DNA of 64,000 bases, from the UHGV virus genome UHGV-1372088, one strand, 5' to 3'. Each line of letters opens with the position of its first letter. Position 1 is the stretch's first letter. Both the position numbers and the translations under genes were made by a program. The notes beneath the pieces are model-generated. The model was not told the DNA's origin, did not search any database, and worked only from the letters and a program-made list of their open reading frames with translations. The DNA is from a virus. Of this stretch, positions 11,217 through 54,676 are shown one piece after another.

Positions 11217-14200
11217 ATGGAACAGTTCAAAAAAAGAAAACTGCCTGAAATTATCGCAGGTGCTGGCGGCAAGAAGTCGTCCGGCTCGTCAAGGACACCG
11301 GTAGAGGCGGACGACACCGTTAACTCGAATGTCAAAGTATCCATTCTGGACTTGCTGGGTGAGGGCGTTATTGGCGGTCTGAAGGACGGCGCGAAGTCGA
11401 TCTTCCTTAACGACCTGCCATTGCAGAACTCTGACGACACTTACAACCACTCAGGCGTAACCTGGTGGTTCCGTGATGGCTCTCAGGACCAGAGCATCAT
11501 CGAAGGCTTCGACTACACCGAAACGCCTAAAACCATCGGCTTGCAGGTCAAGAAAACGAGCGCCGTTACGATGGCGGTCGACAGTGACAGCGCTGACCGC
11601 TTCCGCGTCATTCTGAAATTCCCATCGCTGAAATCTGTCGACAAAAAGACGGGTGACACCAGCGGTACTTCTGTCACGTACAAATTCCAGGTGAGCAGTG
11701 CCGGCGGCGCATTTGTTGACGTGGCGCCAGAGGGCGAGTCCTCCGGGACCGTTACGCTGACCGCGAAGAAGGCCGGCGTTTATTATCGAAGCTACATACT
11801 CAACCTGCCGAAGCCGGGCTCTAAGTATCAGGTTCGTGTTGTTCGTGTTACCGACGACAACAAAGACACGACCTACCTTGCCAACGATATCTATGTGGAT
11901 ACCGTCGGGGAGATCATCAACACCAACATGAACTACCCGAACTCTGCGCTGGTCGGCCTTCGCGTCAACTCAGAGCAGTTCGGCTCGTCCATGCCGTCTC
12001 GTTCGTACCTGATTAGCGGTATGAAGATCCGCGTCCCGTCAAACTACGATGAAGTCACCAACGAATACCGAGGGACATGGGACGGTTCGTTCAAACTGAT
12101 GTCGTCCAGTAACCCGGCATGGATTCTGTATGACCTCGTGACCAATAAGCGCTATGGTCTGGGTGAGTTCGTCAGAGAGTCAATGTTTGACCTTGGCCAG
12201 CTTTATCAGATCGGCCGGTACTGCGATGCGCTGGTTGACGACGGCTTTGGTGGCAAAGAGAAACGATTCGCCATCAACACGCAGATCACCACGCTTCAGG
12301 ACGCCTATCGCTGCGTTCAGGATATTGCTGGTGCTTTCCGTGGGATGGTTTATTGGGCCGGCGGCATGGTTCATGTGACGCAGGATAGCCCGTCAGACCC
12401 GATCGCCATCTACTCAAACTCCAACGTAATTGATGGTCGATTCTCCTACAAAGGCTCTGCCCGTAAGGATCGCCCTTCTGTCGCGCTTATCACCTACAAC
12501 AACAAAGAAGACAATTACAAGCAGAATATTGAGTATGTCGAAGACTTAGAAGCCATTGAGCGCTACGGGATACGCAAGACGGAGTCTGTAGCGTTTGGTT
12601 GTACTTCTCGTGGCATGGCTCATCGTGTGGGCTTGTGGACGCTTTATACAGGGCGTATGGAGTCGGACGTTATCACGTTCCAGACAGGGATGGACTCAGC
12701 ATTCCTCGTTCCGGGCGACGTCATCCTGATTCACGACAAGTTCCGCGCCGGCCGTCGTAATTCTGGTCGTGTTGTCGCATCCACCGCAAACAGCATTACA
12801 CTGGACTCTACGGTCGACATGACCAAGGCTGGCACCATCACCTTCATTAACGCTGAAGGCCGGATGATTAGCCGCGACATCCTTGAATCTGGCGTAGTGA
12901 GCAAAGTCACCTTTAAAGATGCAGTGAACGAGGCCGACCGCCCGGTTGCTGATGGCATCTGGGTGATTTCTCAAAGCGATCTGAAACCGCTTCAGGCTCG
13001 CGTAGTTGGTGTTACCCAGGGTGAAGACGGCGTTGGTAGCACGATCACCTGTATCCAGAATAACCCGTCCAAATATGCTGCCATTGATGACGGCGCCGTG
13101 CTCATCCCGCAAAACACGACCGTCCTTGATCCGACATTCTCGAAACCCGAGAACCTGAAGATCACTGAAGGAACATACCTGTCCTCTCCGGGCAACCTAA
13201 ACGTATCGCTGACGGCGACATGGGAAGGTAAATCCGCAGAGTATTGGGTTAGCTGGCGCCGATCCGATGCCGGTAATGTGTCCAACTGGCAGACGGCCAA
13301 AGTTAACGAAGAGCAGTTCGAAGTTAAGCCGGTCGCGGAGAGCGGCAAATACGACTTCCAGGTGTACGGCGTTTCCGTCTCCGGGCGTAAGACCGAAATC
13401 CTCAGCACAACGTATCAGGTTCTGGGAACCATGACGCCTCCGGGCGCTCCATCGTCTCTGACTGCCGTTGGCGACTACCGCCAGATTATCCTTGGCTGGT
13501 CTAACCCGTCGTCCGTCGATTTGGATCACATCCAGATTTACGCCTCGAAGACCAACGACGTCACCAAGGCGACTCTGCTGGCTAAATCCACGACCACCAA
13601 CTTCACCCACAGCGGTCTGGAAGATTCGGTAACGTGGTACTACTGGATTCGCTCGGCCAACAAACGCGGCATGACCAGTGACTGGAGCTCGAAGCTCGGT
13701 ACGTCGGCAATGACGCGCGATGTATTGTCGTTCCTGCAAAACAAGATCACCGAATCCGAGCTCGCCAAAGACCTTCTGGCTGATATCGACAGCAAGGCGG
13801 TTGCTGCTGAGGTTGATGCTTCCATTGAAGACGCGAAGTCCGAAGCTACCGCGCAGGTTGAGGCCGCCAAGAAAGAGGCGTCCAGCGCCTTAAGCGCAGC
13901 CCAGGTCACGCTGAACAACGCCATCAATCAGGAAGCGACTGACCGCAATAATGCTGTTGCTGACGAAGCTAAGCAGCGCTCCCAGGCTATTTCGGCAGAA
14001 GCTGATGCGCGTACCAAGGCTATCTCCGATGAGGCTATCGCTCGCGCTGACGCAATTACAAAAGAGTCCGACACTCGCACGAGGGCAATGGCCGACGAAG
14101 TCACCGCCCGAAACAAGGCTGTCGCTGACGAAGCCGCCGCCCGGACAAAGGCTGTGTCTGACGAGGCTGTCGCTCGCGCCAAGGCTGTGTCTGATGAGGT

Positions 14201-17200
14201 GGCGGCCAGAACCAAAGCTGTCGCAGATGAGGCCACCGCTCGCGCCAAGGCGATATCTGACGAAGCCGCCGCACGCGCTACGGCAATTAGCGATTCGGTG
14301 GCGGTTGAGGCTACCGCTCGCGCGAAGGCTATCGCAGACTCCGCGTCGTCTCTCAGCGACAAAATTGAAAAAGAGGTCACCGATCGCGTCAAGGCTGTTT
14401 CCGATCTGGACACCAAAACCGCAAACGCGATCTCGTCCGAATCATCAAGCCGCATCGCTGCCATTTCTGATGAGGCAAAGACTCGCGCTGACGCTATTCT
14501 TCAGGAGAAGAACAGCCGCCAGGCGGAAATTAAAAATGTGTCCGCTCAAATGCAGACCGCCAACGAGTCTCTGGCGCAGCAGATTTCACAGGTCGCAGCG
14601 GGAACAGGCGAGCAGTTCGACAGTCTCAAGATCTGGTATTTCGATGCACAGACAACTGAAGGGTGGAGCGGCAACAAGAGCGCTATTCTGTCTGCTGACG
14701 GGTGGATTCGCTCAGGCAATGGCGTGGATGCATGGCTGACATCGCCAGCAGGTCTTGCTATCGCCGGCGCATCCTATCGCTTCATGAAGATGCGTATCCG
14801 AAAAGTGGGTAATCCAGTTTGGGAAGGTGCAATTCGCTGGATCACCAAAAGCGGCGATAGCTTCAACAACACCAATTTCATCACGGTAAGCGAACCGGAG
14901 TACAACGCCCAGGGTGTTGCTACGCTGACGGCAAGCGATATCAAGTGGAATAACGATACCGTTCACCAGATTCGTCTTGATCTTTCCATCTCGACCGATG
15001 ATTCAAACTACATCGAAGTCGACTGGATCGCCGTCGGCCGACCAACTCCGGGCGCCGGCATGGCCGCTCTGCAAGATGAGAAGACCGCCCGTACCAACGC
15101 TGATGCAGCAGAAGCAGCCAGCCGCTCAACTCTGGCAACACAGCTGCGTGGCTCTTATGACGGGACTGACATTACAAAGCTGAGCTCTGGCCTCATCTTC
15201 CAGGAGCAGCAAGCGCGTGTAACTGCCGATAAAGTAGAGGCGACCGCACGTCAGTCACTGGAAACCAAAGTGAATGACAGCGTATCGAGTATCAACAAGT
15301 CGCTCGATACGCTGAACACGAAAGACCAGGCGATGGCGTCAGACATCACCGGCCTTAAATCTTCTTTAGACGACAAAGCTGATGCGTCGGCCGTTCAGAC
15401 ACTCAAGGCGACGGTCGAGCAGCAGGGCTCGAATATCTCTACTCAGGGACAGTCGATCACCAAGCTTCAAGGCGATCTGAATACCACCAACACCAATGTT
15501 GGGAAGAAAGCCGACCAGACGGCCATGACCGCGTTACAGGGAACTGTGACCCAGCAGGGCAAGGATATCGCGGCAGCCAACAGCAGCATCTCCACCCTGA
15601 AGTCTTCTCTGGACACTACGAACGATGCGGTGGCCAAGAAAGCTGATGCGACGGCGGTCAGCGATCTGTCTTCTCGCGTAAGCGCGACAGAAGGTAGCGT
15701 GTCCAGTCAGGGCGACAGCATTGTCCAGCTGAATAACTCACTGAGCAACGCTCTGGCGGACTCTGACGCTTCAGCCAAGACTCCGAACAACCTGATCGTC
15801 AACCCATCGTTTGAGCGTGGTATGGACGGTTATATTGGCGCATCCAGTCTCAGTACGGTCGTTACTGTTCAGATACCGCATGTCGGCACAAAAGCACTGA
15901 AAATTGACCCAGGTAGCTCCGTATCTCCGGGCCAGTACATCGATTTTGTCAAAGGCCGTACTTATGAGATCGGCGTCTGGGTTAAACAGGTTTCTGGAAC
16001 AACAGATAATGGGCAGGGCAACAACAAGCTGCGAGTGGGTAATAGTGCTGGAGCGCCAGTGTTTGAGGTCCCGTTCGCAAACCTCACCATTGACTGGACG
16101 AAAGTTAGCAAACGATGGAAGGCTACCGAGACGGGAAGTCTGCCCGTTACGCTGAGCAACTATCTGACCGCCGGCAACCGCTACTTCGATGACTTCTACG
16201 TTATCGACGTAACCGACGCCGTGAACATCGATGCGAGCGCCTCCGCGATTTCTTCGTTGCAGAGTACCGTCACGCAACAAGGTAAAGACATTTCGTCGCA
16301 GTCCACCAGCATCGCTGGCCTGAACAACAGCCTGAACACAACCAACGAAAACGTCGCGAAGAAGGCTGATTCCTCTGCGGTCCAGACGTTGCAAAATACT
16401 GTGACGCAGCAGGGCAAGGATATCTCTGCCGCCAATAGCGACATCACCAATCTGAAAGGCAGTCTGGATGCGACAAACGATAAAGTCGCTACCAAGGCTG
16501 ACGCTTCAGCAATGAGTGATCTGGCGTCTCGCGTATCCCAGAATGAGAAAGGCATTGCCACGCAATCCGACTCTCTGACCAAATTGAGTAACAAGGTGTC
16601 CAGCATTGACGTCGGCGGTGTGAACCTCATCACCAACGGCGATATGAGTGCGGCGCCGGTATCTCTGCTTTCCACTACGACCAGCTTTAAATCGTTCGAT
16701 CGTACCGTGACTGCCGATGTCCGTGGCATGTCAGTGGTGACGCCTCGCTCAATAACGCTGTCCGTATGGTTTAAAGAGCTGTCCTCTGGGTTCGGGACGA
16801 CGAAGCCGTTCACCAGTGTTGTGATTGGTAAAAGCGCTGCCGGCGATAATTGGGGCGTTCGTTTCTATGCCAGCAACGGAAGTGTGTCGCAGAAAGGGGA
16901 TATGTTCGTCTGGACCGGTACGATTAACCTGAAAGCCGGCGACACGCTGTTCAATGACCCGACGACGATCCGCTTCATTCTGGAAGATAAAACCCAGAAG
17001 ACTGGCGCCATCTTCTACCGCGTTAAGTTGGAAAACGGCAACATCGCAACCGACTGGTCCGCAAGCCCGGACGAAGTGAAGTCAGGTCTGGATGCCAATG
17101 CGTCTGCACTGAATGCACTAACGACGCGCGTTGCCTCAACCGAGGGTAATGTTGAATCTCAGGGCAACAGCATCACTTCTCTGAAGAACGACCTGGCGAC

Positions 17201-20200
17201 AACCAACGCCAACGTTTCGAAGAAAGCTGACTCGTCCGCTGTAGCGACAATCCAGAGCACGGTAACGCAGCAGGGCAAGGACATTGCATCCTCCGCGTCC
17301 GACATCTCATCGCTGAAGAATAGTCTCGCCACAACGGACAGCAACGTCGCGAAGAAGGCGGACGCCTCAGCACTGCAAACTCTGCAAAACACGGTAACAC
17401 AGCAGGGTAAAGATCTGACCAGCGTTGGCAATCGTGCAACGGCGCTGGAGAACAGCCTCAAAACGACGAACGACAATGTTGCGACCAAGGCCGATGCCTC
17501 CGCGCTGTCAACGCTTCAGAATACCGTATCACAGCACGGTGATTCCATTGCGTCTCAGAGCGACTCAATAACCAGTCTGAAAAACAGCGTCGGTTCTTTG
17601 GTTAACATGGGCGACAATCTGGTTCAGGACTCCAGCTTTGACAACGGCGGGCAAACGTTCAGGACTCAGCAAAATTCTGGAACATCTGGAAGTATTGTTG
17701 CGTTTGGCGCGTTTGGTGAAAACTCGGCCGGTGTGCGTATGGTTAAAGTCAACGGTACGTCGCCTGGTCTGTTCGCTAACGGCAAACTGCCAGTTCCGGT
17801 AAATGGCGCGAGAAAATACCGTTACATTGTTCGCGCGAAGGGTGTTTCCGGGGCAATGAATATGCTGCTGCGCCGCTGGAATTTTAACGGCAATACGGAA
17901 GGGGCGTATGAAGACAAGAACAATACGCTGACAACCGACTGGCAAACCATCACCTGGGACACATCCTTCTCGCCGAAAGACGGCGTTGACGGTCAGTCCT
18001 TTGGCATCTACTGCCATCCGAACAATGGCGAGATCTGGATTGATTCATTCCAGGTGTTCGACATTACCGATGCGACCAACAATGAGACGACGGCCAGCGC
18101 GTTAAGCAATCTGTCGACGACCGTTTCCAGGCAGGGTGAAACCGTCACCTCTCAGGGTACGGCGATCACCAAGTTGCAGAATGACCTCAGCTCCACCAAG
18201 ACCGATCTGGCTAAGAAAGCGGATGCATCGGCGCTTCAGACACTGCAAAGCACCGTGACCGATCAGGGTAAGACGCTGACCAGCCAGGGTGATGCGATCA
18301 CGGCGCTGAATAACACCGTTAATACGGTGAAAGGTGATGTGGCAAAGAAAGCCGACTCCTCTGCGCTTCAGAATCTTCAGAGCACCGTAACACAGCAGGG
18401 TAAAGACATCTCCACCAATGCCAGCAACATCACGGCGCTGACTGGAAACCTTGCCACCACAAACGCTGCCGTCGCAACGAAAGCTGATGCTTCTGCGTTG
18501 AACAACCTCACAACGAGAGTGACCCAGAACGAGAAGAACATCTCTTCTCAAAGTGACGCCGTAACGAAGCTGTCCAACACGGTAAGCAACATCGCGGTAG
18601 GTAGCGCAAACCTGATTCCGAACTCCGGCACAATGGAGGGATGGTCTGACGTCATTAGCGACACCTATCGTGGCAACAAGGTCTTCTCGTTCACGAGAAA
18701 AGCCAACAGCTCAAGCTACGTTCAGTCGAACGAGATTGTGCTGGCCGGCCCGGTGGACTCCGACAGCTACGTCTACAGCTTCTGGGCGAAAGCCGCGAAG
18801 GATGGCACTGTCATCAACGCCTACTTCTACAACCCAAGCAACACGACCGGTTCTGAAACAAGCCAGGGTGTTAAGGGTAGCAGTTCTGATGGCTCTGCGG
18901 CGATCACACTGACCACCTCATGGGCGCGTTATTGGGTTAAGTGGACTCATTCTCCGACAACCGGAACGAAGCGCTTCATTCCGGCGCGACTGAACAATTC
19001 CTCAACTGCCGACCAGACTGTCTTCATCAGCTCGCCGCAGCTGGAAACCGGCAACGTCGTAACCGACTGGAAAGCGGCAGACAGTGATTTCGCCTCAGCC
19101 TCCGCGCTCAGTACGCTGACCAGCCGTGTAACCTCGGATGAAGGCGTTATTTCATCTCAGGGTTCGGCAATCGCCGATCTGAAAAACAGTCTGGCGACAA
19201 CAAACTCGACCGTTGCAACAAAGGCGGACGCTTCAGCGTTGAGTTCGCTTCAGAACACCGTAACCAAGCAGGGTACGGACCTGAAGTCGGCGTCTGATTC
19301 CATCACGACGCTGAAGAACAGCATCGCGGCGACTGATGCCAATGTTGCCAAGAAAGCGGACGCATCCGCTCTCCAGACGCTCCAGAGCACCGTCTCTACG
19401 CAAGGGGATAAGATTGCCAGTCAGGGTAATTCTATCACCAGCCTGGGCAACTCACTGGACACCGTGAAGGGCGATGTTGCGAAGAAGGCGGACACTACGG
19501 CTTTGAATAACCTTTCTACTCGGGTTAGCAATGCCGAAGATAAGATCAGCAGCAGCAGTGACGCCATCACTTCGCTGAACAGCTCGCTGAATCAGCAGTC
19601 TAAGCGCGGCGCAAACATCCTGCCAGACGGGACGTTCGAGAGCTATTCGAGCGGGTACAATATCACCAATGGTCGCGTCATCGTGACTGCTGACGATTCT
19701 CACGGCGGAAACAAATGCATCCGTGTGACACGTCCGAACGACTACACTAATTATACAGATAACAGTGACAACCACATCTTCAGCGGCTTCCAGGTTCGCG
19801 ACAACGCGGTATTCTATGTTGAGTGCTGGGTTAAGCTGGACGCCAAGAGCACGACGATGGATGGCTCGGTGCAGATTGCGGTCGGCATGTCGTTGCAGTA
19901 TCAGGATAACTCCTGGCAGTGGCCGGCACTCATTAAGTCGGCAAAAGATCTGTCCGCAGACACCTGGACGAAAGTCAGTGGCTATCTGAAGAGCAGCAAG
20001 AGCGGTATCAAACAGGCGATGGTGCGGATCTCCATACCAAACGTATCGACTGTTAAGGCGGGTAACTCCTTCCTCGTCGATGATTTTGTCATTACCGACG
20101 TGACAGACGCCTATAATGCCCAGCAGACGGCTGATGCCACTGCGAGCGCGGTATCAACGCTTCAGACGACTGTGTCCAGGCAGGGCGACAGCATCACCTC

Positions 20201-23200
20201 GCAGGGCGACAGCATCACAACCCTGAATAATGGCCTGGCCACGGCGAACAAAGCCATTGGCACCAAGGCTGATGCCTCCGCGCTGTCATCGCTGCAAAAC
20301 ACCGTTACCCAGCAGGGTGAAGACGTTGCTGCCAACACCAACAATATCACTGCGCTGTCAAATCAGGTTGTCAACGGCAAGCAGGACACTTGGGCTCGCC
20401 GCATCTACAAGTGCCAGCTTGCCAACGCCGGCACCGAACCGACGTTTAGCGACATTCAGGGGCTTTCCCCGGTATTTATGGATGAAGTGGCCGACGCAGC
20501 CAGGATGGACTTCTCTGGCGCCGGATCGTATGTAGTCGCGCATTACAAGGCGATGGTTCGTGTTGCTGCGGATACCACCATCTCTGTGTCGCCTGGCTCT
20601 CGTGTGTTTGATGACTCCGGTGCGGTGTATGTGAATGGTGTTCGTCAGGCTGCTGCGTTGTCTGGAACAGCTGTACTCAATTTCACACTGTCCGCCGGCT
20701 GGAATACTGTAGAGTTTCTGGTTAACCAGTGGACCGGTAATGCCTATGTCAATCTGGGCTTCAAGCTGGGCGACAAGGTTGCCGAGCTGTATTCTGGTCT
20801 GGGCGTCTCTTCACTGTCTTCGGCGCTGAACTCGATCAGCTCCAACGTCAGCAAGGTGGGTGATCAGGTTTCCAGCAACAGCACGGCGATCACCTCTCTG
20901 AAGAACGGCCTGAGCGATACCAACTCTACCGTTGCGAAGAAAGCGGACGCTTCGGCTCTTCAGACGCTGCAAAACACGGTTACTCAGCAAGGTAAGGATA
21001 TTGCAAGCCAAAGCGACAGTGTTACGAATCTCAGCAACGCACTAAGTAACGTTTCTATTGGTGGCGTCAACCTGATCAAAAACTCAGGCGACATGGCCGG
21101 GTGGTCTGGTAAAACCAATGAAATCTTCCGTGGCAATGCGGTGATTAGCGCGACTACTAAAGCGGGCAGTTCCTACCGAGATCTCAAGGAGATTACTCTC
21201 GACGCTCCAGTCGACAATGCAGAGTACGTTTACAGTTTCTTTGCAAAAGGCGGTGAGAACGGCCAGAGCATGACCGCTTACTTCTACAATCCTAACTCGA
21301 CGATATCTAGTGTTAGTAGCCAGGGTGTGTCAGGCGGTGATGTCGATGGTCGTATGTCATTCACTTTGACAACTGAGTGGGTTCGTTATTGGGTTAAGTG
21401 GAAGCAGAAGCCGGGAACTGGATCTAAGAGACTAATCCTTGCTCGCATCCAAGCATCTTCGACGAAAGATCAGACCGTCTCTATCACCAGCCCTAAGCTG
21501 GAAGTTGGCAATATGCCTACAGAGTGGTCTCCGGCGCCGAGCGATATGGCATCGTCTAACGATCTGTCATCGCTGAAGACTACGGTTGACGCGAATAGCG
21601 GCGCTATTCAGTCTGTAACCTCTCGCGTCCAGAAAACTGAAGACAATATCTCCACGCAGAATACCGCGATCACTAAGCTTCAGGGTGATTTGTCGACCAC
21701 CAACAATCTGTTTTCCACGAAGGCTGATTCCACCGCGCTTCAGACGCTGTCAGGTCGCGTCGATAAGACGGAGTCCAGCATCAGCACCCAGAACGATGCA
21801 ATAACCAAGCTGAACAGCAGCCTTGATACCACAAATAAAGCTGTGGCTAAAAAGGCGGAGCAGTCGTCTCTCGATACGCTGAGCGGCCGGGTATCCAGCA
21901 CTGAAAATGGGATCACGGCGGCGAACTCCAGCATCACGTCTCTGAATGCGGCTATTCGCGCAGAGAACGCGAGCAGTGGGGATTTGATTACTAACCCTAC
22001 ATTTGACCCTCAGTACGCTCAGATGGGCTTTACCGTCGTCACAACCGACACAGATGGTGTTCCAGCAAACTGTCCATTCAGATATGCGGCTAAACTTGCG
22101 TCCCGTGACCATCATCCGAACTTCAACGCCATCGTTGCAACATTGGGCGATGTGTTTGAGATTTCGGTGCTGGTGGCGTGCGGCGCTGGGAATGCTGACT
22201 TTAACCTCTATCTTTGCACAGCAAACGGCCCAACTGGTGGGATAGGTGCCCCGCTTTATAATGGCGGAAATACCAAAGCTACAAGCACCTGGACTCGCGT
22301 AACATGGAAGTTCACTGTTAGCCAGGCAATGGTTGACAAAGGCTACATTCGTCCGTTCCTGCAAATCAACCAGTCTTCACCGTTCGGTACGATCTGGTAC
22401 GTCACTGACTGGCATATGCGCAACATCACTGCGGCATCAAAGGCGCAGGATACGGCGAATGCCACCTCTAAGGCGGTCGATTCTCTGACGTCCACGGTGA
22501 ACCAACAGGGCAGCGATATTTCCTCGATCGGCTCTCGTACAACGTCGCTTGAGAATGGTCTTAGCACCACAAACGCCAACGTTTCGAAGAAGGCTGATTC
22601 TTCTGCGCTTCAGACGCTACAGAACTCGGTAACACAGCAAGGCAATGACATTTCTGGCCAAGGTTCTCGCGTAACGTCTCTGGAAAATAACCTGACGGCC
22701 GGAGCAAACCTCATTCCTAACCCAGCGATGCTTAACGGCGCTCAGGGTTGGGGTGGTTCTGAGACAACTGTTGATGGTTACGCGGCGGTCGTCAGCAGCT
22801 CAGGCTGGGGACCATCGTCGTCCTACTTCCAAGTGACGCCAGGCGACATTATCGATTTGAGCCTGATGAGCCAGAGCGCGGGCGCAGCATCCATCTCATG
22901 GGGACTCCGCTTCGACGGCCCTGGACTGAGCAATTTCTGTCTCTACGCCCCTGCGTTGACCTTCGCGGCTGGCGAGAAGAAGAGTGTATCTGCGGCTATT
23001 ACCGTACCTGCTGGCGCAACAAAGGCGATGTTCCAGGCAAGCGCTAGGGCGACTTCCGCACGTACCGTATATAACATCATTGCTACCCGCCGTGATGCTG
23101 GAACCAAAGCCAACAGCTCTGCGATTGATACGTTGAACAGCACCGTCAAAACGCAAGGTGACACGCTTAGCTCGATCGGAAGTCGTACAACTTCGCTGGA

Positions 23201-26200
23201 AAATGGGCTGAGTAGCGCTAACAGCGCTCTCTCACTGAAAGCGGACGCGTCGGCACTGTCATCGCTGACAAATACAGTGACCCAACAAGGCAAGGATCTG
23301 GATGCAGCAGAAGCCAATATAACTGCGGCGAACACCAGCATCACCTCCATGCAGGCGTCTCTGACTCGTCGCACTGTATTTACGGTAACGGCGAAAGGCA
23401 ACGGTAACAGCGCTAATCACGGTTTCTTTGATGAGTCAGGTAAAAATCTGTTTACGCCTGGTCGCAGCTATGCGCTGATCACGTTTAAAGCGAATAGCGA
23501 CGGCTCGACGGTCATTAATACCAGCAAAACCTATGACGTTTTTGGCTCTGCCAACAACGGGAAGGCGATGTCTGACGATATTGCGGCTCTGGCTAATGGC
23601 GTTTACGTTTGCGTGATGACTTATGACGAGCCGTCGGGTCAGCGTAACTCGATTGCATCTGCCTTAGAGTTGCTCGGTGGCACAACTGAAGTTATTAACT
23701 CTCTGCCATATCGCGGCGCGTACATTCTCCTTGGCCGTAAAGGCATGAAGGCCGGCGACGGTCTGGAGTTACGCGCACCTACAGGTGGTGACTCCAGCGC
23801 ATTTATTTCCACGTCCGTTGAGTTTGTGAACGGGGTAATGATGGGGTTGGGCGCCGCCGGCGGTGTGATGATGAAGGCGGATGCGAACGCCAGTGCAATC
23901 ACCACTCTGCAAAACACCGTTAAGCAGCAGGGCGACACTATCGCTTCGAGCAGTAGTGCCATCACCTCTCTGCAAAACGACATGAGGACGGTTAATGACA
24001 ATGTCTCTAAAAAGGCAGATGCATCGGCGCTTCAGACTTTGCAGAACACGGTAACGCAGCAGGGTAAAGATATCTCTACCCAAAGCGCGTCGCTGACGCA
24101 GCTCAATAACAGCCTCAGCGCGACGAATGCCAGCATCGATGCGTCGGGCAAGATCCCTGGGAACCTGATCGTCAACTCGTCATTCGAGCGCGATAAAGAT
24201 GGCTACACCGGCTGGAGCTCTATCGCCTCCGTCATCGCAGCGTCGGTGCCACACTCAGGAAGTAAAATCCTCAAGCTGGCTGCCGGCGGATCTGTGTTAG
24301 TCGGGCAGGACGTTACCTATCTGAAGGGTCGCACCTATAAAATCGGCGCATGGGCTAAGCAGGATTCAGGCACCGTTATTCAGGCTGCGGACAACACGAA
24401 GTTCCGTATCGCGGATAGCACAGGTTTGCTGGCTAGTAGTGTTTACGGTCCTTTCACGTCAAACTGGCAGGAGATTAGCTTCACCTGGAGGCCGGGTAAA
24501 GATGTGACAGCGGCGACACAGATCACCGCCTACCTGTCCGCCGGTGCGATGTATTTCGACGACTTCTACGTTATCGACATCACCGACCGCGTCGATCTGG
24601 ATGCCACGGTGTCTGCGGTTTCCGGTCTGACGACGAGAGTGTCCAATGCTGAAGGGAATATTTCTTCCCAATCCGACAGCATCACCACTCTGAACAACGG
24701 TCTTAGCACTCTGAACAAGACGGTCAGCACCAAGGCCGATGCCACGGCGCTGTCTTCACTTCAGAATACCGTGACGCAGCAGGGCAAGGATATTTCGTCG
24801 GCGAGCGGAAGCATCACCAGCCTTCAGAGCAGCCTGAATACGATCAAGGTTCAGAGCAACCCTTGGATTGACGGTACGTTTGAAACCTATGACAACAATC
24901 AGCAGCTGGGCGGCAGCACTGCGATTGTAACGACGGACTTCAAGAACAGCGGCAACAAATGTCTGAAGGTTACTCGCCCAGCCAATACCAGCGGGAATTC
25001 CGACAAGACGATCGGCTCCTATTCTGCGGTGCGCCAGAGCGCGAAATATCGCGTTGAGTTTTGGGCTATGATGCCGGCAAGTGAAGCCCCGCCGTCTGGC
25101 TGGACTGTGGTCGTTGGTCTGCACTCCATCAACAAAGATGGTGGGAATGACTGGCAGGGCATTGCGTTCGACGAGGCTGGTCTTGGCGGTCGCGACCAGT
25201 GGGTTAAGTTTACTGGTGTAGTGAAAGTGAGTCCGAGCGTTACCCGTAGCCATGTATGGATTTCTACTCGTGGTCAGAGTGGCTCCAACACACCTGGATA
25301 CGCGGTGTACATTGATGATTTCGTCATTACCGATATCACTGATGCTGCGGATGCACAGGCTACGGCGGATGCGAACGCAACAGCAATCTCATCGTTGCAG
25401 ACGAAGGTCAGCGATATCGATGGGAAAGTGACTGCCCAAACGTCGCAACTGTCTTCCATGCAGTCGAAGGTAGATGCGTCTTCTTCGAAAGTGGATCAGC
25501 TGTCTAAGACCATTTCGGACAGTCAGAGCACTCAGGCATCGTTGAACACCAGTCTTCAGTCTCAGATTGATGCCCAGGCTTCGGCCAACATCAAAAACCA
25601 GGCTGATCTGAACTCGGCGGCCACGAGCATTGCGACCATTAAGTCTACGCAGTCCACACAGGCTACGCAGCTTAGCGCAATTGCCAAGCAGCAAACCGAT
25701 ATGACGGCATCGCTGGACAATCAGTCGGCATCTATTCAGACGCTTCAGGAGTCTGTCGCGAACAACGATTCTCTGAAGAGCACCTGGATGGTGAAGATGG
25801 AGACGAACAGCGCCGGCCAGAAATATGCAGCGGGTATCGCGCTGGGTGTGGATGGGAAGAGCCAGCAAAGCCAGTTCTTGGTTCAGGCAGATCGCTTCGC
25901 GCTGATTAATACCAGCAACGGCAATACGACGACACCGTTTGTGATCGATAACGGTGTGACGTACATGAATGCCGCTTACATCAAAGATGGGGCGATCACG
26001 AACGCGAAAATTGGTGGTGAGATTAGGTCTGACAACTTCGTAGACGGATCTCAGGGCTGGCGTGTCGGAAAGGATGGTTCTTCTCAGTTCCACAACGTCG
26101 TTGTCCGAGGACATGTTGAGGCCAACAGTGGATCGTTCAGAGGCGCTGTTTATGCTACTGACGGTTGGTTCCAGGGCACCGTATACGCGAACCGTATTGA

Positions 26201-26729
26201 GGGCGACATTGGTTCCTTCGCCATCAACATCGCACAGCACCGCACGCGTAAAGTGCCGAAGGCGACATGGCAATGGTTCGAGCTGGCCAGATTCCGTCGC
26301 CAGAGCTTCGACCAGGTGATCAACATTCGCGGCGGTCTATTGCAGACCGACAGCATCACCATCGACGGCGGCGCGAAACTCCGGGCGGGTATGTCGTATT
26401 CTTCCGGCGCAGATGGAGGCCTTAATCCAGGATTCCTGTCACACGCCATGTTGTTGCGTGCCACTGGCGCAACTTCTGGCGGCGGCAGCATGGAGATCGG
26501 CATTGAGCTTATGTACGAAACAGGTGGGTGGGACCGCCTGCTGACGGCACAAGGGGAGATGAACGTCGACAATATGTCGTTTGTTGTTCCAGCTGGCAGT
26601 GGGGATGCAGTTCTTCGTTATGGTTGTTATCTTGACCGTAACGGGCAAATGGTATTAACCATCCTTTCACGATTCGACGCTTTTTCGGCGCGGAATAACA
26701 ATGTAATTCGTGGATCGTCCACACCGTAA
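11217..26729 (+). CDS. giant central tail fibre / host specificity protein (lambda J-like N- and C-termini with about 10 inserted beta-sandwich + repeat-stalk modules)
   Basis: Uninterrupted 15.5-kb ORF (5170 aa); N-terminus resembles lambda gpJ; dozens of about 35-aa repeats (ADASALQTLQNTVTQQGKDI...SLNNSL.TTN.NVAKK); about 10 beta-rich domains each ending ..DDF.ViTDvTDA; C-terminus ADRFALINTS... J-like. Confidence 0.85.
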   Translation: MEQFKKRKLPEIIAGAGGKKSSGSSRTPVEADDTVNSNVKVSILDLLGEGVIGGLKDGAKSIFLNDLPLQNSDDTYNHSGVTWWFRDGSQDQSIIEGFDYTETPKTIGLQVKKTSAVTMAVDSDSADRFRVILKFPSLKSVDKKTGDTSGTSVTYKFQVSSAGGAFVDVAPEGESSGTVTLTAKKAGVYYRSYILNLPKPGSKYQVRVVRVTDDNKDTTYLANDIYVDTVGEIINTNMNYPNSALVGLRVNSEQFGSSMPSRSYLISGMKIRVPSNYDEVTNEYRGTWDGSFKLMSSSNPAWILYDLVTNKRYGLGEFVRESMFDLGQLYQIGRYCDALVDDGFGGKEKRFAINTQITTLQDAYRCVQDIAGAFRGMVYWAGGMVHVTQDSPSDPIAIYSNSNVIDGRFSYKGSARKDRPSVALITYNNKEDNYKQNIEYVEDLEAIERYGIRKTESVAFGCTSRGMAHRVGLWTLYTGRMESDVITFQTGMDSAFLVPGDVILIHDKFRAGRRNSGRVVASTANSITLDSTVDMTKAGTITFINAEGRMISRDILESGVVSKVTFKDAVNEADRPVADGIWVISQSDLKPLQARVVGVTQGEDGVGSTITCIQNNPSKYAAIDDGAVLIPQNTTVLDPTFSKPENLKITEGTYLSSPGNLNVSLTATWEGKSAEYWVSWRRSDAGNVSNWQTAKVNEEQFEVKPVAESGKYDFQVYGVSVSGRKTEILSTTYQVLGTMTPPGAPSSLTAVGDYRQIILGWSNPSSVDLDHIQIYASKTNDVTKATLLAKSTTTNFTHSGLEDSVTWYYWIRSANKRGMTSDWSSKLGTSAMTRDVLSFLQNKITESELAKDLLADIDSKAVAAEVDASIEDAKSEATAQVEAAKKEASSALSAAQVTLNNAINQEATDRNNAVADEAKQRSQAISAEADARTKAISDEAIARADAITKESDTRTRAMADEVTARNKAVADEAAARTKAVSDEAVARAKAVSDEVAARTKAVADEATARAKAISDEAAARATAISDSVAVEATARAKAIADSASSLSDKIEKEVTDRVKAVSDLDTKTANAISSESSSRIAAISDEAKTRADAILQEKNSRQAEIKNVSAQMQTANESLAQQISQVAAGTGEQFDSLKIWYFDAQTTEGWSGNKSAILSADGWIRSGNGVDAWLTSPAGLAIAGASYRFMKMRIRKVGNPVWEGAIRWITKSGDSFNNTNFITVSEPEYNAQGVATLTASDIKWNNDTVHQIRLDLSISTDDSNYIEVDWIAVGRPTPGAGMAALQDEKTARTNADAAEAASRSTLATQLRGSYDGTDITKLSSGLIFQEQQARVTADKVEATARQSLETKVNDSVSSINKSLDTLNTKDQAMASDITGLKSSLDDKADASAVQTLKATVEQQGSNISTQGQSITKLQGDLNTTNTNVGKKADQTAMTALQGTVTQQGKDIAAANSSISTLKSSLDTTNDAVAKKADATAVSDLSSRVSATEGSVSSQGDSIVQLNNSLSNALADSDASAKTPNNLIVNPSFERGMDGYIGASSLSTVVTVQIPHVGTKALKIDPGSSVSPGQYIDFVKGRTYEIGVWVKQVSGTTDNGQGNNKLRVGNSAGAPVFEVPFANLTIDWTKVSKRWKATETGSLPVTLSNYLTAGNRYFDDFYVIDVTDAVNIDASASAISSLQSTVTQQGKDISSQSTSIAGLNNSLNTTNENVAKKADSSAVQTLQNTVTQQGKDISAANSDITNLKGSLDATNDKVATKADASAMSDLASRVSQNEKGIATQSDSLTKLSNKVSSIDVGGVNLITNGDMSAAPVSLLSTTTSFKSFDRTVTADVRGMSVVTPRSITLSVWFKELSSGFGTTKPFTSVVIGKSAAGDNWGVRFYASNGSVSQKGDMFVWTGTINLKAGDTLFNDPTTIRFILEDKTQKTGAIFYRVKLENGNIATDWSASPDEVKSGLDANASALNALTTRVASTEGNVESQGNSITSLKNDLATTNANVSKKADSSAVATIQSTVTQQGKDIASSASDISSLKNSLATTDSNVAKKADASALQTLQNTVTQQGKDLTSVGNRATALENSLKTTNDNVATKADASALSTLQNTVSQHGDSIASQSDSITSLKNSVGSLVNMGDNLVQDSSFDNGGQTFRTQQNSGTSGSIVAFGAFGENSAGVRMVKVNGTSPGLFANGKLPVPVNGARKYRYIVRAKGVSGAMNMLLRRWNFNGNTEGAYEDKNNTLTTDWQTITWDTSFSPKDGVDGQSFGIYCHPNNGEIWIDSFQVFDITDATNNETTASALSNLSTTVSRQGETVTSQGTAITKLQNDLSSTKTDLAKKADASALQTLQSTVTDQGKTLTSQGDAITALNNTVNTVKGDVAKKADSSALQNLQSTVTQQGKDISTNASNITALTGNLATTNAAVATKADASALNNLTTRVTQNEKNISSQSDAVTKLSNTVSNIAVGSANLIPNSGTMEGWSDVISDTYRGNKVFSFTRKANSSSYVQSNEIVLAGPVDSDSYVYSFWAKAAKDGTVINAYFYNPSNTTGSETSQGVKGSSSDGSAAITLTTSWARYWVKWTHSPTTGTKRFIPARLNNSSTADQTVFISSPQLETGNVVTDWKAADSDFASASALSTLTSRVTSDEGVISSQGSAIADLKNSLATTNSTVATKADASALSSLQNTVTKQGTDLKSASDSITTLKNSIAATDANVAKKADASALQTLQSTVSTQGDKIASQGNSITSLGNSLDTVKGDVAKKADTTALNNLSTRVSNAEDKISSSSDAITSLNSSLNQQSKRGANILPDGTFESYSSGYNITNGRVIVTADDSHGGNKCIRVTRPNDYTNYTDNSDNHIFSGFQVRDNAVFYVECWVKLDAKSTTMDGSVQIAVGMSLQYQDNSWQWPALIKSAKDLSADTWTKVSGYLKSSKSGIKQAMVRISIPNVSTVKAGNSFLVDDFVITDVTDAYNAQQTADATASAVSTLQTTVSRQGDSITSQGDSITTLNNGLATANKAIGTKADASALSSLQNTVTQQGEDVAANTNNITALSNQVVNGKQDTWARRIYKCQLANAGTEPTFSDIQGLSPVFMDEVADAARMDFSGAGSYVVAHYKAMVRVAADTTISVSPGSRVFDDSGAVYVNGVRQAAALSGTAVLNFTLSAGWNTVEFLVNQWTGNAYVNLGFKLGDKVAELYSGLGVSSLSSALNSISSNVSKVGDQVSSNSTAITSLKNGLSDTNSTVAKKADASALQTLQNTVTQQGKDIASQSDSVTNLSNALSNVSIGGVNLIKNSGDMAGWSGKTNEIFRGNAVISATTKAGSSYRDLKEITLDAPVDNAEYVYSFFAKGGENGQSMTAYFYNPNSTISSVSSQGVSGGDVDGRMSFTLTTEWVRYWVKWKQKPGTGSKRLILARIQASSTKDQTVSITSPKLEVGNMPTEWSPAPSDMASSNDLSSLKTTVDANSGAIQSVTSRVQKTEDNISTQNTAITKLQGDLSTTNNLFSTKADSTALQTLSGRVDKTESSISTQNDAITKLNSSLDTTNKAVAKKAEQSSLDTLSGRVSSTENGITAANSSITSLNAAIRAENASSGDLITNPTFDPQYAQMGFTVVTTDTDGVPANCPFRYAAKLASRDHHPNFNAIVATLGDVFEISVLVACGAGNADFNLYLCTANGPTGGIGAPLYNGGNTKATSTWTRVTWKFTVSQAMVDKGYIRPFLQINQSSPFGTIWYVTDWHMRNITAASKAQDTANATSKAVDSLTSTVNQQGSDISSIGSRTTSLENGLSTTNANVSKKADSSALQTLQNSVTQQGNDISGQGSRVTSLENNLTAGANLIPNPAMLNGAQGWGGSETTVDGYAAVVSSSGWGPSSSYFQVTPGDIIDLSLMSQSAGAASISWGLRFDGPGLSNFCLYAPALTFAAGEKKSVSAAITVPAGATKAMFQASARATSARTVYNIIATRRDAGTKANSSAIDTLNSTVKTQGDTLSSIGSRTTSLENGLSSANSALSLKADASALSSLTNTVTQQGKDLDAAEANITAANTSITSMQASLTRRTVFTVTAKGNGNSANHGFFDESGKNLFTPGRSYALITFKANSDGSTVINTSKTYDVFGSANNGKAMSDDIAALANGVYVCVMTYDEPSGQRNSIASALELLGGTTEVINSLPYRGAYILLGRKGMKAGDGLELRAPTGGDSSAFISTSVEFVNGVMMGLGAAGGVMMKADANASAITTLQNTVKQQGDTIASSSSAITSLQNDMRTVNDNVSKKADASALQTLQNTVTQQGKDISTQSASLTQLNNSLSATNASIDASGKIPGNLIVNSSFERDKDGYTGWSSIASVIAASVPHSGSKILKLAAGGSVLVGQDVTYLKGRTYKIGAWAKQDSGTVIQAADNTKFRIADSTGLLASSVYGPFTSNWQEISFTWRPGKDVTAATQITAYLSAGAMYFDDFYVIDITDRVDLDATVSAVSGLTTRVSNAEGNISSQSDSITTLNNGLSTLNKTVSTKADATALSSLQNTVTQQGKDISSASGSITSLQSSLNTIKVQSNPWIDGTFETYDNNQQLGGSTAIVTTDFKNSGNKCLKVTRPANTSGNSDKTIGSYSAVRQSAKYRVEFWAMMPASEAPPSGWTVVVGLHSINKDGGNDWQGIAFDEAGLGGRDQWVKFTGVVKVSPSVTRSHVWISTRGQSGSNTPGYAVYIDDFVITDITDAADAQATADANATAISSLQTKVSDIDGKVTAQTSQLSSMQSKVDASSSKVDQLSKTISDSQSTQASLNTSLQSQIDAQASANIKNQADLNSAATSIATIKSTQSTQATQLSAIAKQQTDMTASLDNQSASIQTLQESVANNDSLKSTWMVKMETNSAGQKYAAGIALGVDGKSQQSQFLVQADRFALINTSNGNTTTPFVIDNGVTYMNAAYIKDGAITNAKIGGEIRSDNFVDGSQGWRVGKDGSSQFHNVVVRGHVEANSGSFRGAVYATDGWFQGTVYANRIEGDIGSFAINIAQHRTRKVPKATWQWFELARFRRQSFDQVINIRGGLLQTDSITIDGGAKLRAGMSYSSGADGGLNPGFLSHAMLLRATGATSGGGSMEIGIELMYETGGWDRLLTAQGEMNVDNMSFVVPAGSGDAVLRYGCYLDRNGQMVLTILSRFDAFSARNNNVIRGSSTP

Positions 26730-28288: not shown

Positions 28289-28375
28289 GTTGCGATGATA
28301 TGTAAGTGTATACATACTAGCCTAGTGCGGCTATCATACAGGCTGGAATCGGTTTGACAGACATGGAGGACGAAA

Positions 28376-31179: not shown

Positions 31180-31196
31180 TTTTGGAAAGCTGGCCT

Positions 31197-31503
31197 ACCC
31201 CTATATGTTTTAAGATCTTTTAAAAGAAAGTTATTAAATATATACAGAGCTAGGCTTTTTAACGCATTCAAAAGGCTTGAAAAGACAACACCCAGATACC
31301 TTTCAGGTACTGGCTGTTAACGTCAAAACCCAGAGTCAAAACCACGGAGTAAGGCATCTGAAAGATGCCTGGCTCCGTTCAGTTAAAGACGGTTCTGGGG
31401 TACTTGTTTTAAGTCAAAGCCCAGCCTTTTCTTCCTTCAAAAAGACCTAGCTCTGTATATCTTTTAATACTTTCTTTTAAAGTCTTTAAAAACATATAGG
31501 GGT
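31197..31503. repeat. about 55-bp imperfect inverted repeats flanking a 190-bp core with GTCAAAACC iterons and a GGCATCTGAAAGATGCC hairpin (candidate parS and/or ori)
   Basis: Left arm CCCCTATATGTTTTAAGATCTTTTAAAAGAAAG...CAGAGCTAGG and its reverse complement at 31447-31503; direct repeats AGTCAAAACC x2 plus a variant; non-coding. Confidence 0.6.
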
Positions 31504-31634
31504 ATTCGACGTTCACCCCAGACCTCAAAAAGAAGCCGCCAAAGAACCTACATTTCCCACTTTTAAAAATCACGCAGCCACATTACACTTGGCACAATTG
31601 TAAGTATGTAAGTGTATACATAGGCATCATAAAA

Positions 31635-35834: not shown

Positions 35835-35913
35835 CCTCAACAATTCACTGCCATGCCGTTGCACTTCGTTTATGATATATGTATAAGTAAGTGCATACAT
35901 AGGTGCAACGAGC

Positions 35914-38831: not shown

Positions 38832-39263
38832 CGGTTTAGATATATAAGTGTTTACATACATGCTCGTAATGTATAAGATTGTTTTGTTTTCGGAGTGATG
38901 CGATTTTTGCGGAGTTTTAGAAACTGACCACAAAGATAAATGCAAACGATGATGTAGTTCTGATGGCGGCTTAATAGCCTATAAGTCAGTGAGGTCTTCC
39001 GATTCCTCATTAACAAATTCGGCGCACTGATCCGGTGTGATTAATAATGGATAGCGGAGACTTGCTGGTGAATAGGCGATACTGACCCACGTACCCTTAA
39101 CCACGCGATAGAGTCAGACGGCGAGTCTCTGCGAACATGGGTGATGGCCTTTTAGTTTGTCGATTAGCTGTGCATAGCGTCGGCGAGCGAAGTCTGGTGA
39201 CTTAAAGGTTTATTCCGATGCCTGATGTGTGAAATGCAAATAGCATATTTGAGGCTGAGGATT

Positions 39264-39291
39264 GCGGGTTCGATTCCCGCGTCACTCTCCC
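39264..39291 (+). other. isolated tRNA T-arm-like element (GCGGGTTCGATTCCCGC + acceptor-like tail), no matching 5' acceptor found
   Basis: Perfect GGTTCGATTCC T-loop consensus; followed by 15-bp inverted repeat CAGCTGTTTGGGTGG / CCGCCCAAACAGCTG at 39297-39375. Confidence 0.3.
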
Positions 39292-39703
39292 ACGTTTCAG
39301 CTGTTTGGGTGGTTAGGAGCATTTCCAATAACCATATCCCGGTTTCAGCCCGCAACTGACCGCCCAAACAGCTGCGTCGTGTGTGATTACTTAATGTCTC
39401 ATTTCATCTTGGGTTAATTTGAAATTGCGACGTAGCGCCTTTCTCAAAACATGAAGAGGGTTTTGAGAAAGTGCGTGCTTACGATCGGGCTTTCTTTTGC
39501 CATTGACAGTCTTCTTCAACGACTTGATATGTTGATCATAAGCCCAGCCGGGGGTGGCGTGATAACACCGGCTGATTGAGATGTTTGTCTAAGGAAGGAG
39601 ACTTTGGTATTGGTCTCCGATCTCACCTCCAGGCCATCGAATATGCCTCCGCTGTTTGGTGACAGGCTCAGTCCGTTCCCTCTTAACGATAAAAGAGGTG
39701 CAA

Positions 39704-39786
39704 GCAAACAAAGCAGTCTGGTTGACTGCGGCCGAGGAAGACGTCTTATCCGGCAGAGAGTGGTTAGATTCCGCTTGTTTGCGCCA
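39704..39786 (+). tRNA. tRNA-like gene (7-bp acceptor, D-arm, T-arm GGTTAGATTCC, encoded CCA; anticodon arm non-canonical)
   Basis: GCAAACA pairs TGTTTGC 7/7, D-stem GCAG/CTGC with GG in loop, T-stem AGTGG/CCGCT, discriminator G then CCA; anticodon region cannot be folded into a 5-bp/7-nt arm by hand. Confidence 0.35.
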
Positions 39787-39822
39787 ACCTAAAGGGCTTT
39801 TTCGAGAGTCCTTCAGATTGGA

Positions 39823-39899
39823 TACCCAATGCGACAAAACGGTAAGTCGAGAGGATGCTGAGTCCGATGATGCAGGTTCGAGTCCTGCTTGGGTGACTT
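39823..39899 (+). tRNA. tRNA-like element (acceptor, U8, D-arm, T-arm GGTTCGAGTCC; anticodon arm defective)
   Basis: TACCCAA/TTGGGTG acceptor pairing, D-stem CGAC/GTCG with GG in loop, T-stem GCAGG/CCTGC; no CCA; possible pseudo-tRNA. Confidence 0.3.
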
Positions 39900-40104
39900 A
39901 TCTAAGATGATGTGATTCCATACATCACTTAGTGTCGAGGTCTAAATGGTGCGGCCATCAACCGCGTAAACAGCCATTAGATCCGAGCCACAAGCCTCGT
40001 CTGGCACTAACGTAAAGTGCAAGTGACGTGAAATTCAGGCTGTACGGCCAGAAGAGTAGCGTCGCGAACCATAGATCAACTTCATAATTTAAAAGAGAAT
40101 ACAC

Positions 40105-41709: not shown

Positions 41710-41788
41710 AACACGAATATATGTAATGACATACATATGTGATAGCGGTATATTCCAGATGTCACTCATCAATTAAAGGGATTTTAAA

Positions 41789-42554: not shown

Positions 42555-43100
42555 ATGTCCAGAGTGGTATTGCCGAAATATCAAAGCATTAAAGTTGTGG
42601 AGGCGGCCAAGATTGCGAGAATCCACGGTCAGGTAATGCTGTTATCCTTCTGCAATCATGTAACACGCTCTGAATTGGGCCACGTTACCAAAGTTGAAGT
42701 AGAACAGAATTACATCGACAAACATCAGCCGCAAGTTGGCGGATATTACGTTCGTTACGAAGATGGATATGAGTCCTACTCACCACAAGACCCATTTGAA
42801 TCAGGTTATTTGCCGCTCGAAACCGCTATCCATGCCGCCAAAGTCGGTGCATCTTTTGGTATTGCGATCGAGATGCTGAAAGACGGCCATCGCGTCGCTC
42901 GCAAAGGCTGGAACGGCAAAGGTATGTTCTTGCGCATGGTGTCAGGCAAACAGTACGACGTCGCTTGCGGCATTGCTCGTGATCTGGAGCTGGCGCCCTG
43001 GATTGGGATGAAAACAGCGGACGATAAGTTTGTTCCCTGGCTGGCCAGCCAGAGCGATATGCTGGCTGAGGATTGGGTGATTGTGGAGGTCGCTAAATGA
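42555..43100 (+). CDS. hypothetical protein (KGWNGKG motif, DUF2829-like)
   Basis: 181-aa ORF; RKGWNGKGMFL motif recalled from a phage-associated domain of unknown function. Confidence 0.4.
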   Translation: MSRVVLPKYQSIKVVEAAKIARIHGQVMLLSFCNHVTRSELGHVTKVEVEQNYIDKHQPQVGGYYVRYEDGYESYSPQDPFESGYLPLETAIHAAKVGASFGIAIEMLKDGHRVARKGWNGKGMFLRMVSGKQYDVACGIARDLELAPWIGMKTADDKFVPWLASQSDMLAEDWVIVEVAK

Positions 43101-44518: not shown

Positions 44519-44558
44519 AGAACGGGAAAATAAACCCGCTCTGGGCATAAGGCAGAAC

Positions 44559-54670: not shown

Positions 54671-54676
54671 CCACAA

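Follow-up and report, generated by a model that had tools for sequence, protein, structure and literature searches.

A dispersed palindrome at the sigma-70 promoters of an SSU5-type phage-plasmid is a candidate operator for a phage-encoded repressor

Introduction

What is the short sequence that stands in front of the lysis genes of this virus and recurs before so many of its other operons, and which protein might read it? The stretch of DNA analyzed here, 64,000 nt of the virus genome UHGV-1372088, is referred to throughout as the window. A sequence-only reading of it had noticed some 14 copies of an intergenic motif, one of them at the lysis cassette, and had offered two explanations: a phage-specific promoter that does not follow sigma-70 spacing, or a repressor operator coordinating structural, lysis, and replication operons. 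We examined the form of the motif, its position relative to promoters, its conservation among relatives, and the regulators that might bind it.

Results

The window and its relatives

In a megablast search, 24 kb of the window matched plasmid pINF102.5 of K. pneumoniae (CP110757.1, 103.8 kb) over its full length at 99.1% identity. Weaker matches came from 584 plasmids of Klebsiella, Enterobacter, Salmonella, Escherichia, and Yersinia, and the sole matching phage was Salmonella phage SSU5. By protein comparison, the window is colinear with SSU5 through the head, tail, lysis, ParA, helicase-primase, ligase, CobT/CobS, polymerase, and recombination modules, and the modules common to the two lie nearly all on the + strand. 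Given this colinearity and the plasmid match, we assign the window to an SSU5-type Klebsiella phage-plasmid of ~104 kb, of which it represents 64 kb. The other 40 kb were viewed through the reverse complement of CP110757.1, rotated to begin where the window does. Non-coding sequence makes up 8.7% of the window, and its tail region includes a single ORF for a 5170-aa tail protein (11217-26729), the first ~1130 residues of which resemble the 1385-aa tail protein J of SSU5. Lineages of relatives are labeled by the identity of their DEAD helicase to that of SSU5 (c71, ~71%; c83, ~83%). Single-protein queries with the DEAD helicase and the FljA-like protein returned no relatives, whereas an alignment query did.

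Form and enrichment of the motif

The motif had been described as the asymmetric sequence TAAGTGTATACATA. Allowing up to three mismatches, this form has 16 matches in the window against 1.66 expected, and a degenerate form, AAGTRNNTACATA, has 8 against 0.01 expected. An unbiased k-mer count returned TAAGTA, GTAAGTA, ATACATA, and GTATACA as the words most enriched in intergenic sequence. Aligned by their centers, the window sites form a near-palindrome, with GTAWGTRT and AYACWTAC meeting at the dyad and flanks of 4-bp periodicity, and the logo of 92-106 non-redundant sites from relatives is symmetric out to ±12, giving the 24-bp element ATARR-TAWGTA-NN-TACWTA-YYTAT. This two-fold symmetric form, and not TAAGTGTATACATA, describes the motif. 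The core had been called palindromic; its conserved symmetry is not that of TGTATACA, whose two central bases vary, but that of TAWGTA-NN-TACWTA. The motif recalls two kinds of host transcription factor site, the inverted NarL heptamers and the RcsAB box.

A 24-bp matrix was trained on IMG/VR relatives only, with the window left out, and applied at a threshold of at least 12 bits. It located 13 loci in the window, all of them intergenic, against 0.22 in shuffles of the whole window and 0.07 in shuffles of its intergenic sequence. Chance and AT-rich sequence as the source of the motif are excluded by the shuffles and by the use of a matrix trained on other genomes, and the recurrence first seen by eye is a real enrichment.

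Twelve of the 15 positions listed in the sequence-only reading proved sound; 38862 should read 38845, 55205 is a weak match, and there is no site at 53010. The last is a spacer, rich in stop codons, that splits a polymerase gene: a DNA polymerase III alpha homolog, a single 1172-aa gene in SSU5, is here divided into two in-frame ORFs (50629-52998 and 53056-54252) separated by 57 nt in which stop codons occur five times and GTAAACAA three times. The extended palindrome noted at 46979-47020 does exist as an imperfect 52-nt palindrome, but it is composed of two adjacent sites. A distance of 20-90 nt to a downstream + strand gene start had also been claimed, and in 11 of the 13 sites the dyad center does lie 22-90 nt from the next + strand ATG. 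The exceptions are 38840, which is followed by an ORF-free tRNA region, and 46449, which lies upstream of a - strand regulator gene.

Overlap with sigma-70 promoters

A consensus scan found 20 sigma-70-like -35/-10 pairs on the + strand of the whole window, and 7 of the 13 palindromes touch one of them (P = 0.002 against random intergenic placement). Among 249 non-redundant sites in relatives, TAnnnT has a directional peak on the right of the dyad at +23 nt (45 sites vs. 4 on the mirror side), with smaller directional peaks at +14, +28, and +31. The peaks at +6 and +10 have counterparts on the opposite arm and are therefore a product of the palindrome itself, so that a -10 element inside the motif was rejected. 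Phylogenetic footprints show separately conserved -10 elements (TATGAT/TATCAT, TGnTATAAA, and TGTAAGAAT) at varying distances on either side of the palindrome; in the SSU5_042 group, for example, TGTAAGAAT stands at +20. Overall, the palindromes are placed from ~-44 to +18 relative to the start, in every case within the footprint of RNA polymerase (~-55 to +20).

Placement over the -35 element is the commonest, with the center at ~-34.5 and the -10 following at 17 nt. The site before the holin/lysis cassette (28298-28321, score 18.1; ATG 28376) is of this type: its right half provides TATACA as the -35 of TATACA-17-TATCAT (28309-28337), found by the promoter scan. Its orthologous group of 63 loci has the order terminator, palindrome, 10-20 variable bases, TGnTATAAA, and conserved leader, and the distance from palindrome to -10 is 22, 27-29, or 33 nt depending on lineage. 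Within the leader itself, at ~28338-28375 and at the holin loci L006-L085, a block that reads GCCATCCCGATTTGAC...GGAGGA has been kept from lineage to lineage between the -10 and the start codon, which suggests a second, post-initiation control on the lysis genes. The palindrome at 41715-41738 (score 20.7) covers the -35 of ATGACA-17-TATATT (41726-41754; 10 of 12 consensus matches in the scan) before phoH (ATG 41789). That at 38840-38863 (score 18.1) covers the -35 of TTTACA-17-TAAGAT (38851-38879, promoter scan) and has orthologous groups in relatives, and this promoter drives an ORF-free region with a tRNA-Gln gene. The region 3' of this operator-promoter (38864-40104) runs for 1.25 kb without ORFs and has its tRNA-Gln at 39823-39897; relatives share a conserved leader, TTGTTTTCGTTGAGACGCGACTGTTTGA, and have one tRNA gene in SSU5 and three in Cyrano.

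In a second subset the palindrome occupies the spacer, with its center at ~-21. The site before the minor tail protein L gene (9081-9104, score 19.8; ATG 9139) lies in this way within TTGATA-17-TAACAT (9078-9106, promoter scan), and its SSU5 ortholog is at 15601. The site at 62597-62620 (score 12.2), 3' of a terminator (62555-62585) and before the gene at 62698, falls in the spacer of TTGATG-17-TAACAT, a pair read by eye that has 8 of 12 matches and is under the scan threshold. Before the major tail gene (ATG 2611), the palindrome at 2540-2563 (score 17.7), with ATAAGTATGTGT and ATACTTACCGTG as its left and right halves, covers both the spacer and the -10 of TTGTAA-18-TATACT (2527-2556, promoter scan); its SSU5 ortholog has TTGAAT-18-TATACT in identical register.

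Other palindromes are found 8-18 nt past the start, with those at 35879 and in the helicase-operon group at ~+12 to +18. The site at 35879-35902 (score 15.7), before a 147-aa gene and the ligase operon (ATG 35914), is 3' of CTGCCA-17-TATGAT (35848-35876, promoter scan), with its center at ~+12. The helicase-operon group (79 loci) is represented in the window by 31600-31623 (score 14.9), just 5' of the first helicase-primase operon gene (ATG 31635). Its members conserve TTCCAA-17-TATGAT or TATCAT upstream, and the palindrome follows between the start site and the Shine-Dalgarno sequence or ATG. The site at 46998-47021 (score 14.5), before the CobT-like gene (ATG 47031), spans ~+1 to +20 of TTGAGT-16-TATACT, and the -10 of this promoter (TATACT) is held by a weak site at 46983-46998, the left arm of the extended palindrome.

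The strongest palindrome in the window (49116-49139, score 25.7) precedes the CobS-like gene (ATG 49208). A candidate promoter, TTGCTT-16-TACAAT, was read by eye just 3' of it, which would put the center at ~-43, and the SSU5 ortholog has TAAGAT at an equal offset. Two sites directly follow terminators: 54705-54728 (score 18.7; terminator 54675-54692) before a UvsY-like gene (phrog_2058/231), and 58682-58705 (score 14.4; terminator 58651-58669) before a small membrane protein gene (ATG 58735). The SSU5 ortholog of the latter, at 55707, comes with TTGAAA-17-TATCAT. Finally, the palindrome at 46449-46472 (score 20.6) lies 75 nt upstream of the start of the regulator gene discussed below and is probably an autoregulatory or divergent-promoter site.

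The palindrome thus overlaps ordinary sigma-70 promoters and does not replace them. A promoter of another class should show a fixed distance and orientation and no host -10/-35, but the element is symmetric and its placement variable. We saw no phage-encoded RNA polymerase or sigma factor among the annotations of pINF102.5, SSU5, and Cyrano or among 20 proteins scanned. The proposal of a phage-specific, non-sigma-70 promoter is therefore not upheld, in view of the 7 of 13 overlaps, the +23 peak, and the conserved -10 elements. Variable placement on both sides of the start, without a fixed helical phase, is the behavior of repressor operators, unlike that of activator or alternative-sigma sites, and it is the operator proposal that the evidence favors.

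The same host promoters could also be served by an activator: a phage protein, such as an 88-aa winged-helix protein, would stand in for the -35 element and recruit host RNA polymerase, in the manner of P1 Lpa, T4 MotA, and class II activators. This would suit the commonest palindrome position, which is the -35 place with the -10 17 nt on. A second class of sites is centered ~10 nt further upstream (~-44), one helical turn away and on the same helical face, and -35 matches are poor at many palindrome promoters; both features are compatible with an activator, and we count them against a repressor. The winged-helix protein is ~70% conserved, like the motif, and SSU5 retains both this protein and the sites without the XRE-type regulator described below. 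An activator could not, however, use the palindromes that lie downstream of both -10 and start (the 79 helicase-operon loci, 35879, and 46998), and at 2540 the -10 itself is covered. The holin promoters, with 22, 27-29, and 33 nt to the -10, break helical phase, several promoters can dispense with a -35 by virtue of TGn extended -10 elements, and sites in ~30-nt gaps between head genes have no room for a promoter. The winged-helix ortholog is absent from the genes listed as expressed in the Cyrano lysogen, which tells neither for nor against this role. Weighing these points, we consider activation unlikely.

Conservation and distribution

SSU5 and more than 200 IMG/VR relatives have the palindrome in orthologous intergenic gaps. 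SSU5, in which the element takes the form AAATAAGTAnnTACTTACTT, has 28 loci, and its orthologous sites include those before the major tail, minor tail, tail fiber, CobS-like, nrdA, and thymidylate synthase genes. In 80 IMG/VR relatives (1.42 Mb) that were fetched around the DnaB-like helicase (66-68% identical), the core TAWGTANNTACWTA with at most one mismatch occurs 344 times, against ~11 expected. Position ±5 varies by lineage and does so alike on both arms: half-sites are TAAGTA in SSU5-like and c71 genomes and TAGGTA in c83, and the window has TATGTA mixed with TAAGTA. The most distant relative examined, L175, has no clear motif.

From 13 in the window, the sites rise to ~23 in the whole 104-kb plasmid, where they stand before almost all + strand operons, those for structure as well as those for replication; the functions served are head, tail, lysis, DNA replication, nucleotide metabolism, and the tRNA region. 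Sites also occur in ~30-nt gaps between head genes that are too short for a promoter, such as the terL-portal gap. On the - strand, only two loci are preceded by sites, the XRE-type regulator gene and the operon of the DEAD helicase, RHH-like, and FljA-like genes; both hold regulator candidates with lysogen-expressed orthologs in Cyrano.

Duplex DNA or RNA

Watson-Crick pairs between the arms are below the expectation under independence at ±1, 5, 8, 10, and 11 and near expectation at ±9 and 12, and ±5 carries A/A or T/T at most window sites. What the arms conserve between them is base identity and not pairing. Several sites begin within 10-20 nt of a terminator, which leaves no transcription from upstream, and many are upstream of a -10; copies that follow a terminator and precede a -10 are untranscribed. 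Symmetric identity without Watson-Crick covariation points to a dimer on duplex DNA and not to an RNA stem, and we read the element as duplex DNA.

An mRNA hairpin acting as an RNase III site, as a stabilizer, or as a translational operator for a FljA-family protein would place the element in the 5' UTR, and at 35879 and in the helicase-operon group it does adjoin the start codon there. A member of PF03614, the FljA family, is among the proteins of the plasmid, and FljA reportedly acts on fliC mRNA. The absence of covariation at the variable positions and the many untranscribed copies led us to reject the hairpin. The FljA-like protein is, moreover, just ~25% identical between lineages that share the motif, and no Rfam family matches the element. 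We therefore hold an RNA-level function of any kind to be exceedingly improbable.

Candidate binders

The leading candidate binder is the 126-aa product of the - strand gene at 46006-46386, a predicted XRE-type helix-turn-helix (HTH) regulator with a C-terminal coiled coil. It matched phrog_8 (transcriptional regulator, E = 1.5e-7), and no Pfam HTH family passed. Its AF2 model (pLDDT 86.9) has helices at residues 9-19, 23-30, 37-42, 50-60, and 64-75, followed by a 49-residue helix, and the top Foldseek matches were C.AhdI, C.BclI, Stl, DdrO, and HigA (target TM 0.7-0.79, with E only ~0.02). On this model, the product is an XRE-type protein with the five-helix Cro/CI fold. Homologs are present in 829 plasmids, and the recognition helix has the conserved sequence NxNNLSLIKSGK. 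Immediately next to the gene, and converging on it, are a Phd/RelE toxin-antitoxin pair and a tyrosine integrase (43944-46016); the 3' ends of the integrase and XRE-HTH ORFs share 11 nt.

The protein is 46% identical to CYRAN_45 of Cyrano, which occupies the same position, between the integrase and a CobT-like gene. The LF82 study gives CYRAN_45 as a putative repressor whose expression in the lysogen exceeds the prophage background 10-fold (PMC9928086).

Within the XRE-locus set (80 loci, without the TAGGTA lineage c83), orthologs have one or two palindromes 40-100 nt upstream in every lineage examined, and an operator upstream of its own gene suggests autoregulation. The SSU5 and Cyrano lineages carry a compressed variant, GGTAAGTACTTACC, before the gene in place of the canonical palindrome, a point that we count against the repressor reading. 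This variant is a perfect palindrome, GGTAAGT(A/G)CTTACC, 4 bp shorter than the canonical form, and is found at 42590-42605 of L166 and upstream of 7001 in L230, L250, and L252; it may be an autoregulatory site of lower affinity or one that is read differently.

SSU5, which forms plaques, is without the XRE-HTH gene, whereas the 94-97% identical prophage-plasmid L047 carries it on an extra 5.8 kb. The extra DNA lies between the tRNA gene and cobT (42642-42673 in SSU5, L001, vs. 14363-20141 in L047). SSU5 may be a repressor-less derivative. Absence of the gene from a plaque-forming phage suggests that the XRE-HTH protein, if it is the binder, would be dispensable for lytic growth, as would befit a repressor; this, like the lysogen expression of CYRAN_45, is indirect evidence from relatives. 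A point against it as binder is that its HTH domain is only 35-51% identical across lineages with a common operator core; the 88-aa winged-helix protein (~70%) and two ParB-like proteins (~63%) are better conserved. PDB sequence searches with three candidates returned nothing significant.

The other candidate genes all lie outside the window. In rotated CP110757.1, a - strand cluster at 90.2-94.0 kb encodes the DEAD-box helicase, the 93-aa RHH-like protein, the PF03614 protein (FljA, "repressor of phase-1 flagellin"), and two unknown proteins. It is divergent from a five-gene ParB-like/ATPase operon whose last gene, just before terS, encodes the winged-helix protein. The FljA-like protein was set aside as an unlikely binder, given its ~25% identity between motif-sharing lineages.

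Should another repressor expressed in the lysogen be the binder, notably the RHH-like protein encoded after the DEAD-box helicase, the XRE-HTH protein would have some other employment. In the Cyrano lysogen, the ortholog of the RHH-like protein, CYRAN_117, exceeds background expression 12-fold, and the winged-helix and ParB-like orthologs are absent from the listed lysogen-expressed genes (PMC9928086). The operon of the RHH-like gene has a palindrome over its predicted -35 in all lineages, and a dimer of dimers would fit both the 4-bp periodicity of GTAA/TTAC and a site of 24 bp. Against this, the protein is only 31-39% identical across lineages, its family assignment is to phrog_1466 only, with the RHH fold read from sequence, and it is kept in plaque-forming SSU5. 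We regard this arrangement, with the XRE-HTH protein otherwise employed, as quite unlikely.

Either of two conserved ParB/Srx-domain proteins might instead bind the palindromes, the way KorB binds on IncP plasmids and SopB at its scattered sites on N15. The palindromes would then be dispersed centromeres or KorB-like silencing sites, coupling partition with silencing of lytic promoters. ParB-family proteins usually recognize palindromes of 13-16 bp. The promoter of the ParB-like operon carries a palindrome in every lineage, which would fit autoregulation, and the conservation of its two ParB-like genes is in keeping with the idea. The plasmid has, however, a separate ParA/small-protein partition module with its own 65-nt repeats, the ParB-like genes are missing from the Cyrano list, and the close overlap with core promoter elements is more operator-like than centromere-like. 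Such a role is, in our estimate, very unlikely. The 65-nt repeats form an inverted pair (31196-31260 and 31440-31504), 83% complementary and with 179 nt between them, in the 455-nt gap that follows the ParA/small-protein operon. Outside the window, the complete plasmid has a third copy immediately 5' of terS; the repeats could be a partition or packaging site.

Among these proteins, then, we tentatively name the XRE-HTH regulator as the most likely binder, at slightly less than an even chance. The RHH-like protein comes next as a minor possibility, and the remaining candidates rank below it.

Discussion

A dispersed operator set

The motif, its symmetry, its enrichment and conservation, and its overlap with conserved promoter elements are direct observations. 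We infer from them that the palindromes are probably dispersed operators at which a dimeric phage repressor acts on sigma-70 promoters. During plasmid maintenance, such a phage-encoded repressor would occupy all palindromes and would exclude RNA polymerase from the -35, spacer, or -10 or block it just past the start; its loss or inactivation would release all lytic operons together. The XRE-HTH/coiled-coil protein (46006-46386, - strand), if it is the binder, would be autoregulated through the copy upstream of its own gene. One feature that we count against repression is that the parB operon begins with a site, though activity might be expected of it in the plasmid state.

A further suggestion, which we consider doubtful, is that the lytic program is flat: one palindrome and one repressor would gate ~25-30 early and late promoters in a single tier, with no cascade of late activators or antiterminators. 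If so, timing would be set by operator position and affinity only. As the operator core is common to plasmids of Klebsiella, Escherichia, Salmonella, Enterobacter, and Yersinia, hundreds of clinical phage-plasmids would then be cross-immune and open to control by one protein.

SSU5-type phage-plasmids are common in clinical Enterobacteriaceae and can carry resistance genes, and 584-829 PLSDB plasmids match parts of the window. Our literature search found no paper describing regulation in SSU5-type elements. The present analysis provides an operator consensus, a map that pairs ~13 operators with promoters, and a small set of proteins that may be the repressor, and the palindrome can serve as a signature for annotating transcription units.

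Comparison with known systems

The nearest functional parallel is the C1 repressor of P1, which has 22 dispersed operators, asymmetric 17-mers of sequence ATTGCTCTAATAAATTT (PMC8546580). Both elements are phage-plasmids with many operators spread over ~100 kb at separate lytic promoters, ~23 of them here. The present site is, however, a symmetric 24-bp palindrome of unrelated sequence, and we saw no C1 homolog, so the resemblance is one of function only. The late (structural and lysis) operons of P1, moreover, are governed indirectly, via Lpa, whereas here the head, tail, lysis, and replication operons share the palindrome. P1 late promoters consist of a -10 and a 9-bp inverted repeat for Lpa (PMC10695390). 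Like them, the promoters described here have an inverted repeat near the -10, and many have no good -35, but the repeat is longer and its placement ranges over ~-44 to +18; among the subset of plasmid proteins scanned, we identified no Lpa homolog.

IncP plasmids, too, have repeated palindromic operators, for KorA and KorB, at many operons of a large plasmid, coordinating replication, maintenance, and spread. The operator sequences differ from ours, the targets here are phage lytic operons, and kinship of the proteins is only putative.

The stoperators bound by gp71 of mycobacteriophage L5 are asymmetric 13-mers that act in one orientation and lie in short early and late intergenic gaps. The palindromes resemble them in their many copies in short gaps, including promoter-less ones such as terL-portal, but they are symmetric and mostly lie over recognizable promoters.

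The fold of the leading candidate is that of XRE/Cro-CI dimers such as the 434 repressor, the controllers of restriction-modification systems, and SaPI Stl, which would suit a 14-bp core with half-sites ~9 bp apart. The candidate differs in being without an S24 peptidase domain, and on its model would dimerize through the 49-residue C-terminal helix. Judged against these systems, the operator set of SSU5-type phage-plasmids appears to be previously undescribed but of a familiar kind, with a proposed mechanism that is well supported by the anatomy of its sites.
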